64,000 nucleotides of DNA from the sequence record PQ529420; one strand, 5' to 3'. Position 1 is the stretch's first letter. Every line of letters starts with the position of its first letter. The stretch comes from Escherichia phage Eryne. Shown here piece by piece: positions 39,508 to 43,975 of this stretch. A model generated the notes under the pieces. It had not been told where the DNA came from. It searched no databases and was given only the letters and a program-made list of their open reading frames with translations. The position numbers and the translations under genes were made by a program.

Positions 39508-39536
39508 TTGACATACTGTTTTATTGTGCTAATCTT
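39508..39536 (+). promoter_or_regulatory. sigma70-like promoter for plus-strand island
   Basis: TTGACA -35, ~16 bp spacer, extended -10 TGcTAATCT. Confidence 0.5.
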
Positions 39537-39567
39537 AATGCATACACAAATGAGAGGAGATAAACGA

Positions 39568-40119
39568 ATGCAAAACACCGATCTGACTTGGATAGAAGCC
39601 AAAGAAGCAATGTTAAAAGGCAAGCGCGTTAAACATAAATACTTTTGCGAAGGAGAATGGTTTGAAATGCGTAACCGATCCATTGTAGATGAAAAAGGGA
39701 ATGACATGCAACAATGGTTCAAAAATGAAATTTGGCAGGGAACAGGTTGGTCTATAGTTGAAGAGCAGCCTAGCCCAAGCGCACTGTTTAGCCCTATTAT
39801 GTATCGCGTTATCGGTGCTTTAGTTGTTGATCACGGGATTGCAGTGGAAAAAGAATGCTGGGAAGAGGTATCTTTTTTCAACCTGGCTTCTTATGCAAAA
39901 AGCCATATGCACTTGTTTGAAGAAGGGGATGAATTTGTTCTTCGTATGCGATATGGCAAAGAATTCAGATTACCACTTGATAACGATGTAGACACTGTTG
40001 TAAAATGGTTAGCAGAGCATTATGCTTACGATGCAATTTGTGGTCGCAGCTTCGGCAACGAACGCTGGGACATGATTTGTGAAAAATATGATTTTGAGCC
40101 GGAATACGGAGTTTTATAA
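39568..40119 (+). CDS. DUF2829/Tad2-like N-terminal domain protein (putative)
   Basis: Start at Met with GAGAGGAG SD (MQNTDLTW); N-terminus IEAKEAMLKGKRVKHKYF...GWSIVEE resembles DUF2829 pattern. Confidence 0.4.
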   Translation: MQNTDLTWIEAKEAMLKGKRVKHKYFCEGEWFEMRNRSIVDEKGNDMQQWFKNEIWQGTGWSIVEEQPSPSALFSPIMYRVIGALVVDHGIAVEKECWEEVSFFNLASYAKSHMHLFEEGDEFVLRMRYGKEFRLPLDNDVDTVVKWLAEHYAYDAICGRSFGNERWDMICEKYDFEPEYGVL

Positions 40120-40370
40120 TGTTAAGCATCAAACCTAAAATGATAACAGAAGACGAAGCAGACTTTATTTTCAAATGTGGACGTGTATGGAGAGAATTCA
40201 CAAAAGGAAATGAAGTGGTGGTTGTTGTCGAACACAAGATATCTATTCAGGATCTGTTTGGACAATATGTTGATGTTATTAAATTAGGTATTGACAAAGG
40301 TTTAGTTGAGGTGTTAACCTTAGATCAAGTTGAAGCAGAGCATCTCGATAAAGTAGTGGTTGAATTTTAA
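40119..40370 (+). CDS. hypothetical protein
   Basis: 83 aa ORF. Confidence 0.45.
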   Translation: MLSIKPKMITEDEADFIFKCGRVWREFTKGNEVVVVVEHKISIQDLFGQYVDVIKLGIDKGLVEVLTLDQVEAEHLDKVVVEF

Positions 40371-40390
40371 AATACAGATGGGAGAAAGGT

Positions 40391-40564
40391 ATGAGTTTCT
40401 TTGTTACAGTATTTATGGCTATCTGGATTGTAGTCTCACTCGTTCTTTTCCTGGTGGGTTGTCTGGAAGAGATTAAGAAAGCGGTTATTTGCGGTTTCTT
40501 TGGCTTTATTATCTCTCCTGCCTGGATGTGGTTCTTCATTATGATTGGTTTCCTTAAAAGGTAA
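40391..40564 (+). CDS. small membrane protein (untracked, approximate)
   Basis: ~57 aa, two TM helices; SD GGAGAAAGG. Confidence 0.4.
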   Translation: MSFFVTVFMAIWIVVSLVLFLVGCLEEIKKAVICGFFGFIISPAWMWFFIMIGFLKR

Positions 40565-40578
40565 GTGAGGAATAAAGA

Positions 40579-41016: not shown

Positions 41017-41027
41017 AAGGGGTTAAA

Positions 41028-42155
41028 ATGAAATACACGATTTATGGTGATATTGTAAGTGTAAATAAAGATATGGGCGTGGAATCTAACTATCTTCCAC
41101 CTGGATTCTATACTGTTAGTCGTGATCCCCTTGGCAATTATTTTTTAAGCCGTGGTAATCTGACAGGTGTACCGGATGTTCTGTATGGTGAAACAGAAAA
41201 ACGAGCAAATCACGTTATCCGTACATTCCATCGCCGGAGTGCACAAGGTAAAAACACAGGCTTGCTTCTGACAGGAACTAAGGGTAGTGGTAAAACTATG
41301 TTAGCCAAACTCATTAGTCGTGACCTTGTAGAAGAAGGTGTTCCAACTATTATGGTTACTCAAGCCTACAGTGATGCTAATTTCATTGAACTTATTAGCA
41401 AAATTACCGACAAAGCAGTGATTATTTTTGACGAGTTTGATAAAGTATATGAGAAGAAACAAGATCAAGAAGCACTTCTCACTTTGTTAGATGGTACTGG
41501 CAGTGGTAATAAACTGTTTATTCTGACTAAAAACAGTGGCTTTATCTCTGAATTCTTTTTAAATCGTCCTAGTCGTGTGTTTTATAATTTTAATTATGAT
41601 AAAATCTCACTAGAAACTATGATGGACTATTTAGATAAAAACCTGGATAACAAAGCACACTTTGATAATTTCCAAAGACTTTGGGATGTAAGTTTAGAGT
41701 TGTCCTTTGATGTGATCCAAGGTATAGTAGAAGAACTTAATTTCTATCCTGATTTATCCTTTAAAGAATGCATCTCTATGATGGGCGTTTCTTTGGGTGG
41801 TGGTAATAAATGGGATATCAGCAGCGTTGTTATTAATGGAAAACTTCAGAAAGTTAGCTGGGTATCTAGTTGGCATAACTTTACACCTGCAATCTTTTTA
41901 GGTGGTTCGTGCACACTAGACGTGTACTTGTCATCTCCAAGTGATGCAGACTCTAAAGAAGCCCTTGCTAATAGCTCTTACGTGGTTTTTGATGATGAAG
42001 GCGATGCTCGAATTCCATTGAATGCGACAAAAATGAAAGCAGATCTTATCACAGGCGGTAAAATCGTTGTGTTTAGTGATGATCCAGAAGATTCTTTCCG
42101 TATTGTTCTGGAACCAACTATCACCAATGGTGCAACTTTGGCAAGTGTGTTTTAA
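41028..42155 (+). CDS. P-loop AAA-type ATPase (paralog of 25370-26530)
   Basis: 375 aa; Walker A GTKGSGKT, Walker B IIFDEFD; long collinear similarity to the minus-strand ATPase. Confidence 0.6.
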   Translation: MKYTIYGDIVSVNKDMGVESNYLPPGFYTVSRDPLGNYFLSRGNLTGVPDVLYGETEKRANHVIRTFHRRSAQGKNTGLLLTGTKGSGKTMLAKLISRDLVEEGVPTIMVTQAYSDANFIELISKITDKAVIIFDEFDKVYEKKQDQEALLTLLDGTGSGNKLFILTKNSGFISEFFLNRPSRVFYNFNYDKISLETMMDYLDKNLDNKAHFDNFQRLWDVSLELSFDVIQGIVEELNFYPDLSFKECISMMGVSLGGGNKWDISSVVINGKLQKVSWVSSWHNFTPAIFLGGSCTLDVYLSSPSDADSKEALANSSYVVFDDEGDARIPLNATKMKADLITGGKIVVFSDDPEDSFRIVLEPTITNGATLASVF

Positions 42156-42169
42156 GTAAGCCAGCAAAT

Positions 42170-42195
42170 AAAAACCCGCTTCGGCGGGTTTTCTT
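42170..42195 (+). terminator. rho-independent terminator
   Basis: ACCCGC-TTCG-GCGGGT hairpin plus TTTCTT. Confidence 0.6.
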
Positions 42196-42229
42196 GCATT
42201 AATGCCAGATTTAATAAGAGGAGTAGTAG

Positions 42230-43423
42230 ATGGCAGCACCAAAATCATGGGAACAATATAAAGAAGAGTGTCAACCTATTGCGAATAATAAAGGGATTGA
42301 GATCCTAGGATATGTTGAACCGTTTATAGGTTGTGATACGAAAATGATTCTACGCTGTAGGCAGGAGCATGAATGGAAGACTTGTAGTATTAGTAATTTC
42401 AAGCACGGTAACAGTTGTCCTATCTGTTCTGGTAAGAAGCCGTTAACATGGAAAACAGAATTGCCGATCTTGGAAGAGATAGCACAGAAGAAGGGGTATC
42501 AGGTGTTAGGGTACGTTGGAGAATGGAAAGGGAATAAAACAAAACTTGATTTGTTGTGCCATTGTGGGAATAGATGGCAAAGTACAGCAATTCATCAATT
42601 TAAAGGCGGTCGAGGTTGTCCACAATGTAGGGGGGAGAATACAAGGAAGGCACTAACAATGTCCGACGATCAACATATTGCAGATTTCTTTTCTACAGGG
42701 AAATTTAAGGAAGGCACTATCTTCACTAACACAGGAACACGGAGTAAAGGATGCAGGCATAGTATCTGGATGGTTGAATGTCCTGTTTGCTCTCATGATG
42801 AATATGTTCAAGCAGGTGTTTGTGATGGTAAATTTTACTCTGAAGGAAATAACCTTAAACGAGGGTGCATTCCGTGTCGTTGTGGGAACTATCGGTATAC
42901 AGAAGACCAGATCACCTATAGGGTAAAAAAGGAAGTAGAAGGGCAAGGGTATGTCTGGGTAGGTTGGATCGGTAAACCGTCTAGAAGTCACGGTAAGTTT
43001 AAATATCTTTGTCTTGTGCATGGGGAACAGACAGGGAGGGCTAATAACTTATTAAGCCTCGGTCAAGGTTGTCCACAGTGTGCTGGTCATAATCAACAGC
43101 AATTATATATTAATATTGTTAAAGATAATGATATTATAGTGGCTCTTAAGTTTGGTATAGCTAAAGATAGTGATAGGCGATTAAATAGTCAAAATAGTTG
43201 TAATATGTTTTTTATGGAGCGTATTTGTTTATATGATTTTAGCACAGTGAAACAATGTAAGGCTGCTGAAAGAGCTATAAAGAAAAAATTAAAAACTGGT
43301 ATTTTAACGGAAAGAGAGTTGAAAGACGGTTATACAGAAACAGTAAGTGTTTCTGATTTGGAAAATCTTCAAGAAATTATTACACAATATGGTGGCAAAT
43401 TAGTATACAGTAAGGAGATGTAA
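42230..43423 (+). CDS. multi-zinc-ribbon protein with possible C-terminal GIY-YIG/T5orf172-like nuclease domain
   Basis: 397 aa; repeated C..C...GxxCPxC units (GNSCPICSG, GRGCPQCRG, GQGCPQCAG); C-terminal YINIV...ALKFGIAKDSDRRL...E. Confidence 0.35.
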   Translation: MAAPKSWEQYKEECQPIANNKGIEILGYVEPFIGCDTKMILRCRQEHEWKTCSISNFKHGNSCPICSGKKPLTWKTELPILEEIAQKKGYQVLGYVGEWKGNKTKLDLLCHCGNRWQSTAIHQFKGGRGCPQCRGENTRKALTMSDDQHIADFFSTGKFKEGTIFTNTGTRSKGCRHSIWMVECPVCSHDEYVQAGVCDGKFYSEGNNLKRGCIPCRCGNYRYTEDQITYRVKKEVEGQGYVWVGWIGKPSRSHGKFKYLCLVHGEQTGRANNLLSLGQGCPQCAGHNQQQLYINIVKDNDIIVALKFGIAKDSDRRLNSQNSCNMFFMERICLYDFSTVKQCKAAERAIKKKLKTGILTERELKDGYTETVSVSDLENLQEIITQYGGKLVYSKEM

Positions 43424-43975
43424 ATGCGGATTACTGATAAGTATGTGTTCTTCTTCTCGGCAAAAGATGAATTTAGCAACTGGTATCTATCATCTTTTAT
43501 TGAACCTTTAGCTCCCAAGTATAATAATTCTATTACAAGTTCTGTTGAATTTACTTGTGTGGAACAATATATGATGTGGAGAAAAGCATGTTTGTTTTAT
43601 GATTACAACATTGCATCTTCTATTTTAACCGGAGATCTAAGATATACAGGAGAAAAAGAACAGGCATATTATAAGCGACTAGGTAGATTAGTTAAAGATT
43701 ACGATGAAGCTACTTGGACTTCTTTACGGGAGAAGATTGTCAAGCGTGGTTTGTATCTTAAATACACACAAAATGAAGATCTCAAAAATAAACTTATAAC
43801 CTACGCAGATAAGGAGTTCGTAGAGGCAAGCCCTTATGATTCTATTTATGGTATCAAAATGGGGATGTGGGATCGTGATGTGGAAAATAAGGACTGTTGG
43901 AAAGGACAAAATCTTTTAGGAAAATGGCATACAGACCTTGCTGTTTATCTAAAAACACAATCTGATATTTCCTGA
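43424..43975 (+). CDS. NADAR/YbiA-like (DUF1768) protein
   Basis: 183 aa; VFFFSAKDEFSNWYLSSF, VEQYMMWRKA, MGMWDRD...GQNLLGKWH align with YbiA motifs FYS..GDFSNF, SEHYFQAQKF, WGDGG..G.N.LG. Confidence 0.55.
   Translation: MRITDKYVFFFSAKDEFSNWYLSSFIEPLAPKYNNSITSSVEFTCVEQYMMWRKACLFYDYNIASSILTGDLRYTGEKEQAYYKRLGRLVKDYDEATWTSLREKIVKRGLYLKYTQNEDLKNKLITYADKEFVEASPYDSIYGIKMGMWDRDVENKDCWKGQNLLGKWHTDLAVYLKTQSDIS

Follow-up and report, generated by a model that had tools for sequence, protein, structure and literature searches.

Johannesman, Carlson and LeRoux (2024) found the ADP-ribosyl-glycohydrolase NADAR^Bas60 in phages Bas60, Bas61 and Bas62, and, expressed ectopically, it restored plating by several logs for three phages sensitive to DarTG1; it did not protect against DarTG2, and even without phage it neutralised the toxin DarT1 (PMC11257639). 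The glutamate and lysine that catalyse guanine de-ADP-ribosylation are E88 and K95 in the NADAR of E. coli C7 (PMC11543638). T5orf172 genes with tandem CapR-type fingers belong to a homing-endonuclease lineage whose repeats recombine (Barth and colleagues, PMC10448857); the Vibrio satellite PLE has, as its capsid repressor, the protein CapR, a domesticated relative of the ICP1 homing endonucleases (PMC8096241), and a RepA_N-T5orf172 protein of phages Inny and Muut has been proposed to be an anti-satellite nuclease (PMC10448857). In SPO1 Tad2, W25, N26, W73 and D79 contact the ligand, two tryptophans sandwiching gcADPR. Here we describe a locus of Escherichia phage Eryne (PQ529420), at positions 39,508 to 43,975 of a 64,000-nucleotide stretch (the window, to which Inny and Muut are closely related), whose seven open reading frames (ORF1 to ORF7) include relatives of these proteins. 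We read it as a lineage-conserved transcription unit of phi92-like phages with mixed functions (a NADAR protein, a T5orf172 nuclease, a Tad2-fold ORF1, and ORF2 to ORF5), rather than as a single system, and we put the probability of this reading at roughly 75%.

Over the 4.7 kb around the locus, Escherichia phage arall has 98.4% identity, about 50 other Justusliebigvirus genomes have 95-98%, and 19 further records have 60-80%; the source phage is a Justusliebigvirus, a phi92-like coliphage. By way of the annotated relatives Bas62 (JohannJBalmer) and Paula, the region is the counterpart of phi92 gp217-gp224. Seven plus-strand ORFs fill positions 39568-43975, all of them annotated as genes in close relatives and every one preceded by a ribosome-binding site of the GGAG/GAGG type. 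The features are as follows:

39486..39536, plus strand: promoter region, read from the sequence, with predicted function
39568..40119, plus strand: ORF1, 183 residues, counterpart of phi92 gp217, a two-domain fusion
39568-39765, plus strand: Tad2-fold domain of ORF1, residues 1 to about 66
39784-40116, plus strand: C-domain of ORF1 (ORF1C), residues 73-183, function unknown, phrog_11295
40119..40370, plus strand: ORF2, 83 residues, acidic, function unknown, phrog_4868, counterpart of phi92 gp218
40391..40564, plus strand: ORF3, 57 residues, small membrane protein with two hydrophobic segments, phrog_22950
40579..41016, plus strand: ORF4, 145 residues, membrane protein with two hydrophobic segments, phrog_3054
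41028..42155, plus strand: ORF5, 375 residues, AAA+ ATPase, Walker A GTKGSGKT, Walker B IIFDEFD
42170..42196, plus strand: intrinsic, bidirectional-looking terminator between ORF5 and ORF6, called from hairpin energy
42230..43423, plus strand: ORF6, 397 residues, gp222-type, putative homing endonuclease or domesticated derivative
42269-43099, plus strand: four CapR-type zinc fingers of ORF6, about residues 14-290, boundaries approximate
43121-43297, plus strand: C-terminal T5orf172 nuclease-like domain of ORF6, residues 298-356
43424..43975, plus strand: ORF7, 183 residues, gp224-type NADAR ADP-ribosyl-glycohydrolase, NADAR^Bas60 orthologue
25370..26530, minus strand: paralogue of ORF5, 386 residues, 15 kb upstream, same PHROG
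44737-45003, minus strand: lone 88-residue gene, phrog_19316, in the G+C-richer stretch 44480-45230

ORF7, which starts at the base directly after the ORF6 stop codon, matches the Pfam NADAR family PF08719 with E = 3.8e-36 (125.3 bits against a cut-off of 35.1) and TIGR02464 with 110 against a cut-off of 73.7, and aligns with the solved Phytophthora NADAR (PDB 8bau) at E = 8e-12, including the EQY..K and D motifs. It is 98% identical over 183 residues to bas62_0106 and bas60_0111, which stand in the same gene order, and its E47 and K54, within EQYMMWRK, keep the 7-residue spacing of E88 and K95, a mapping made by motif only. This NADAR has relatives in 716 phage records, Herelleviridae among them. 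The NADAR/YbiA-like protein proposed in a first-pass annotation of the window is hence confirmed, and through the 98%-identical orthologue its anti-defence function is, to judge from sequence, one that has already been published. ORF7 would strip ADP-ribose from the guanines that host DarT1 modifies on phage DNA and would let replication continue in DarTG1 hosts, as shown for the orthologue.

That annotation had further suggested that the genes form a horizontally acquired accessory island, interrupting a minus-strand gene array and aimed at host immunity or DNA-modification toxins. The comparison with relatives does not sustain the acquisition. Phapecoctavirus phAPEC8 preserves the order ORF1C-ORF2-small proteins-ATPase-nuclease-(two extra genes)-NADAR, with protein identities of 57-77%, the identity of ORF5 reaches at least 99% in 54 phage genomes or records (64% in Phapecoctavirus), and the G+C of the unit (0.33-0.41 per 1-kb window) lies in the range of the rest of the window. 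Given this cross-genus synteny at about 60% identity, the ordinary G+C and the conserved ATPase, the unit is lineage-conserved and not recently acquired. Klebsiella phage phi1_175008 keeps ORF1C-ORF2-ORF4-ATPase, with a 113-residue protein and a DUF6939 protein replacing the nuclease and NADAR, and in Klebsiella phage 05F01 the NADAR gene stands with neither nuclease nor ATPase alongside. The unit is best described in two parts, a left half that is conserved and, past the terminator, a right half that is more exchangeable, with hot spots at ORF1 and ORF6.

Nor does the unit interrupt a minus-strand array. On its left, the credible genes from about 2.0 kb to 39448 all lie on the minus strand; on its right, about 0.76 kb without a credible ORF precede the lone 88-residue minus-strand gene, after which come a promoter-rich spacer of about 0.45 kb and then the remaining 18.5 kb of the window, on the plus strand. 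With this plus-strand block beyond a single minus-strand gene, the unit opens a strand switch. The GC skew is mostly positive from 39 kb on and dips only at 44-45 kb and 55-56 kb.

We therefore regard it as highly improbable that the entire 4.5 kb form a single anti-defence island, acquired horizontally, whose seven products jointly counter host immunity (Thoeris, DarTG, CBASS). One gene is of proven anti-defence type and another carries an anti-defence fold, anti-defence genes tend to cluster (10.1101/2023.05.01.538930), and the small genes that fill the slots around the conserved ones vary from relative to relative, all of which such an island would lead one to expect; the synteny across two genera, the near-identical ATPase and the ordinary G+C speak against it, as do the membership of ORF6 in a homing-endonuclease family and the use of Bas60, with its near-identical ORF1, as a trigger of cGAMP CBASS (PMC12265669). 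Moreover, searches of PADLOC and NCBIfam returned no match for ORF1-ORF4 and ORF6 and weak, sub-threshold P-loop matches only for ORF5, the matches of ORF7 being NADAR-type entries. The single observations of the first-pass annotation were largely right, and its anti-defence interpretation is right for one gene, ORF7, whose orthologue acts against DarT1, and plausible for one domain, that of ORF1, whereas ORF6 fits the homing-endonuclease family. As for the opposite view, which it had also named, of a conserved core region with known unrelated functions, the region is indeed conserved, but its functions are not known unrelated ones.

Two side observations belong to these comparisons. In phi1_175008 the nuclease/NADAR slot (6005-6622 of that locus) holds the DUF6939 protein (Pfam E = 1e-9) and the 113-residue protein; DUF6939, for which no literature was found in the library searched, may represent another cargo carried in that position. 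C. jejuni is given as host in four GenBank records titled "Campylobacter phage" (MG065639, MG065645, MG065656 and MG065689), which are about 96% identical to the coliphage region; their naming looks doubtful.

Transcription of the unit would begin at a divergent sigma70-type promoter at the strand-switch point. The -35 element TTGACA (39508-39513) is followed, after a 16-nt spacer, by the extended -10 element TGcTAATCT (39527-39535), and this promoter-like site lies 30-60 nt 5' of the true ORF1 start, ATG 39568. Bas62 and Paula have an identical element, and phAPEC8 keeps it as TTGACA-N16-TGTTAAGAT, where it has a better -10 (TAAGAT) and is oriented to drive the Tad2-like gene of that phage. 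A consensus promoter scan of the window did not list the site at 39508 because its -10 hexamer matches at three of six positions, and the motif at 39503-39517 has no second copy elsewhere in the window; thus it is not a repeated phage promoter class. The terminator between ORF5 and ORF6 is the hairpin AAAAACCCGC-TTCG-GCGGGTTTTCTT, flanked by A and T runs (-17.8 kcal/mol, z = -3.65), and the annotation of phage Paula places a terminator on both strands at the equivalent position. The unit thus has the putative sigma70-like promoter of its own and the internal terminator that had been claimed for it. Directly 3' of ORF7 there is no canonical terminator, the first terminator-like hairpins standing at 44659-44690. 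A mechanical gene call had put the ORF1 start at TTG 39508; we rejected it, this TTG being part of the -35 hexamer. Directly 5' of the -35 element stands a perfect 12-bp palindrome, GAAATTAATTTC (39486-39497; one change in phAPEC8), which could be an operator or UP-like element.

What is new in this locus is ORF1, a Tad2-fold domain fused to a second domain at an inversion breakpoint. PHROGs splits the protein into an N-part (phrog_3474 and phrog_22208) and a C-part (phrog_11295), and by tblastn each half occurs alone in other phages. The N-terminus had been likened to DUF2829, which holds for the fold and fails for the window protein in Pfam: ORF1 has no Pfam match at E <= 10, and none to PF11195. 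In a Foldseek search of the PDB with an AlphaFold model of residues 1-71 (pLDDT 84.7), the ten best matches were all Tad2 proteins (SPO1 Tad2, ModTad2 and SptTad2; probability up to 0.98); in the full-length model the C-domain, with a pLDDT of about 50, is unreliable. A direct sequence search of the PDB with ORF1 gave noise only, and word-index searches with full ORF1 or its 71-residue N-terminus gave phi92 gp217 alone, or nothing. We gathered relatives from phage records seeded by phage tblastn and then from the protein database (71 clusters); PF11195 (Tad2-like) was weakly matched by 32 of 64 relatives at E <= 1 (best 3e-5), no other family recurred among the 64, and the best sequence match of the family profile in the PDB was SptTad2. 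An exhaustive profile search extended the family to 593 clusters at 50% identity, mostly standalone proteins of 60-70 residues, and 9 of 88 remote members matched PF11195 at E <= 0.01. As modelled, the ORF1 N-domain family is a sister family with the Tad2 fold, in which an antiparallel sheet comes after an N-terminal helix, and not a member by the Pfam criterion. Its near-invariant residues are A11, G18, H23, F26, E30, E42, G44 and W61. By motif mapping only, F26 and C27 (Thr in most relatives) stand opposite W25/N26 of SPO1 Tad2 and W50 opposite W73, so that, via SptTad2 alignments, both key tryptophan positions are aromatic.

Judged from its fold, the domain would most likely bind a small nucleotide ligand, for example an immune signal. 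It is tempting to go further and see in it an unrecognised minimal branch of the Tad2 superfamily that sequesters an immune signalling nucleotide in Enterobacteria, with members in T4-like Klebsiella phages, Felix O1-like phages, Chaseviridae, rV5-like and phi92-like phages, a proposal that we consider unlikely as it stands; were it true, the partner domain phrog_11295 would, by the fusion logic that led to Sequestin, be a further new sponge or anti-defence domain. An anti-cGAMP role in particular is unlikely, since Bas60, whose ORF1 is 99% identical to that of the window, has been used as the trigger of a cGAMP CBASS, with the signal measured in lysates of infected cells (PMC12265669). The domain may instead be no immune-signal sponge at all, the fold being reused, e.g., for protein binding or for an enzyme acting through His23, Glu30 and Glu42, and this explanation has a substantial chance, somewhat short of even, of being correct. 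It fits a separate branch that the Pfam Tad2-like model barely detects (the 9 of 88 remote members above), a domain about 25 residues shorter than SPO1 Tad2 (89 residues) and often joined to unrelated tails, and near-invariant residues that differ from the SPO1 ligand-contact set; it fits less well with the aromatic residues that the alignments suggest at both key positions (F26 for W25, W50 for W73), with the frequent fusion of known sponge domains to other sponge domains (PMC12265669), and with the fact that the sole structural neighbours are Tad2-family proteins.

The history of the fusion can be read from the relatives. phAPEC8, Justusliebigvirus PD06 and Klebsiella phage phi1_175008 have one layout in common: the last minus-strand gene has the Tad2-fold domain as its N-terminus, the plus strand carries the homologues of the window genes 39158-39448 and 38508-38864, and ORF1C stands as a gene of its own. 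In the window this segment is inverted together with the promoter, which sets the Tad2-fold domain directly in front of ORF1C; hence, the fusion arose through an inversion, and within the genus this inversion is polymorphic. It spans 38508-39567, takes in two or three small genes as well as the Tad2-fold domain and the divergent promoter, is found in the window, Paula, Bas60, Bas62 and 92CQ, and is absent in phAPEC8, phi1_175008 and PD06, the ORF2-ORF7 of which are 98-100% identical to the window.

ORF6 is the second hot spot. It matches CapR (PF21817) in four stretches with E = 1.1e-38, holds 23 cysteines with CxC/CxxC pairs, passes the cut-off of PF10544 (T5orf172, GIY-YIG clan) marginally with 22.1 bits against 20, matches phrog_681 (endonuclease) with E = 3e-84, and is 32% identical to putative homing endonucleases of ICP1; against the PDB, it gave spurious antibody matches only. 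The multi-zinc-ribbon protein with a GIY-YIG-like C-terminus seen at first pass is therefore well founded. Among close relatives its length is 329, 390, 397 or 467 residues, and in phages that agree at 98-100% in the neighbouring genes, its own identity goes from 99% down to 77%; it is in ORF6 that the close relatives compared differ in length. Every Justusliebigvirus and Phapecoctavirus locus examined has the gene at this site, with 57% identity in phAPEC8, and no empty site was found among the coliphage relatives examined; in phi1_175008 it is absent together with the NADAR gene, and among close relatives only the repeat number varies.

From its family membership, ORF6 would be a selfish homing endonuclease or a domesticated descendant of one, whose fingers would set the DNA specificity and recombine, changing the repeat number. 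That it is a domesticated DNA-binding protein, either a CapR-like phage regulator or an Odn-like nuclease directed against a satellite or competing phage, seems to us possible but rather doubtful. Such a role would agree with its fixed position near the NADAR gene in both genera and with its rapid divergence, to 37-99% identity amid neighbours that are 98-100% identical, as in an arms race, and it has precedents in CapR, itself a domesticated relative (PMC8096241), and in the other T5orf172 protein of Inny and Muut that has been proposed to attack satellites (PMC10448857). However, the T5orf172 domain still exceeds the Pfam threshold, the shuffling of zinc-finger repeats is typical of active homing endonucleases too, and, as the authors of that study state, sequence alone cannot separate the options (PMC10448857). 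A tblastn search within the window found no second T5orf172 or CapR paralogue of ORF6, so that a gene of the Inny/Muut type is probably located beyond these 64 kb or has diverged too far.

ORF2 to ORF5, i.e., an acidic protein, two membrane proteins and a highly constrained ATPase, would make up the conserved left half before the terminator. For ORF2, phAPEC8 has 77% identity, Klebsiella phi1_175008 has 61% and Klebsiella 05F01 has 52%. ORF3, which is 100% identical in the five Justusliebigvirus loci compared, and ORF4, which has 44% identity in phi1_175008, were not found in the phAPEC8 locus, where other small genes take their place; with two hydrophobic segments each, they are the two membrane proteins already proposed. 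ORF5 matches Pfam AAA (E = 1.2e-9) and phrog_2376 (E = 2e-107), its PDB matches are confined to the AAA cores of p97/Cdc48, its C-terminal 120 residues or so are private, and its distant relatives are found in jumbo phages and Herelleviridae. Its first 254 residues are 46% identical (E = 2e-81) to the product of 25370-26530 on the minus strand, the C-termini being unrelated, which agrees with the earlier call of a P-loop ATPase with a paralogue 15 kb away. No protease domain was detected in Pfam, PDB and NCBIfam/PADLOC searches, and no match supports the label "FtsH-like protease" that ORF5 bears in the Bas60 and Bas62 records. For ORF2-ORF5, searches of Pfam, PHROGs, PADLOC and NCBIfam gave no link to defence. 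Atd1, an anti-TIR gene reported for Justusliebigvirus, was considered and rejected as a member of the unit, since it is MazG-like and none of the seven ORFs is.

Several points weigh against our reading of the locus as one lineage-conserved unit of mixed functions, or against its parts. The -10 element is weak, with three of six matches, and past the terminator at 42170-42196 the analysis detected no promoter for ORF6-ORF7. The window ORF1 reaches no Pfam threshold for Tad2-like, the sequence-level links to Tad2 are marginal (best PDB E = 0.061), and Tad2 sponges act as homotetramers with ligand pockets at the protomer interfaces. The fixed site of ORF6 in all E. coli-infecting relatives examined fits a domesticated gene as well as one that still homes. 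The NADAR experiments, finally, stem from the orthologue NADAR^Bas60 and not from Eryne.

Downstream of the unit, three tandem direct repeats of 67-75 bp (44174-44394) have the conserved cores TTATTTAAAGTTTTT and TTTGAAAATGAAAAGTTCAA; a 20-mer of these repeats occurs 3 times against 0.06 expected, and in phAPEC8 the cores, not the spacers, are conserved, which points to binding sites for a protein, for instance iterons, an origin or a regulatory array. Directly after them, 44416-44475 is dense in inverted and direct repeats of ATTCTCATTT / AAATGAGAAT, whose number and arrangement differ among Paula, Bas62 and phAPEC8. No Rfam or tRNA match explains this intergenic region. The lone 88-residue gene is 93-98% identical across Justusliebigvirus and Phapecoctavirus, where its neighbours are about 60% identical, and has 43-48% identity in the relatives from Klebsiella; on both strands it is flanked by terminator-like hairpins (44659-44690 on the plus strand, 44729-44711 on the minus strand). 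In the phAPEC8 record an overlapping ORF is annotated on the strand opposite this gene, and it looks spurious.

These results allow a better annotation of a widely isolated group of coliphages that are candidates for therapy: proteins of the gp224 type are to be annotated as anti-DarTG1 NADARs and those of the gp222 type as T5orf172/CapR nucleases, current databases miss the Tad2-fold domain of gp217, and "FtsH-like protease" is a misnomer for the ATPase. If the Tad2-fold family binds an immune signal, several hundred small proteins of enterobacterial phages would join the sponge repertoire, with the fusion partner in ORF1 as a further candidate; otherwise, the locus is an ordinary one.

Set beside the known systems, ORF7 resembles the anti-DarTG1 factors of the NADAR^Bas60/AdfN type in its length, in its position after a nuclease gene and in its Glu/Lys spacing, and differs from NADAR^Bas60, the allele whose activity was assayed, at three residues and in nothing substantive. 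The Tad2/AcrIIA7 sponges (DUF2829, PF11195) have 89-104 residues, whereas the ORF1 domain has about 65, stays below the Pfam threshold, belongs to a separate family of about 590 clusters and is here fused to a 111-residue domain. With the AAA module of p97/Cdc48 and FtsH, ORF5 has in common the Walker A and B motifs and the AAA core; unlike FtsH, it has neither a protease domain nor a transmembrane anchor, and its N- and C-terminal regions are private. ORF6, like the ICP1 gp165/gp174-type T5orf172 endonucleases, joins N-terminal tandem Cys-rich CapR repeats to a C-terminal T5orf172 domain and varies in repeat number between close relatives, but it stands beside an anti-defence gene among small early-type genes, whereas that family is enriched near terminase, reductase and capsid genes.

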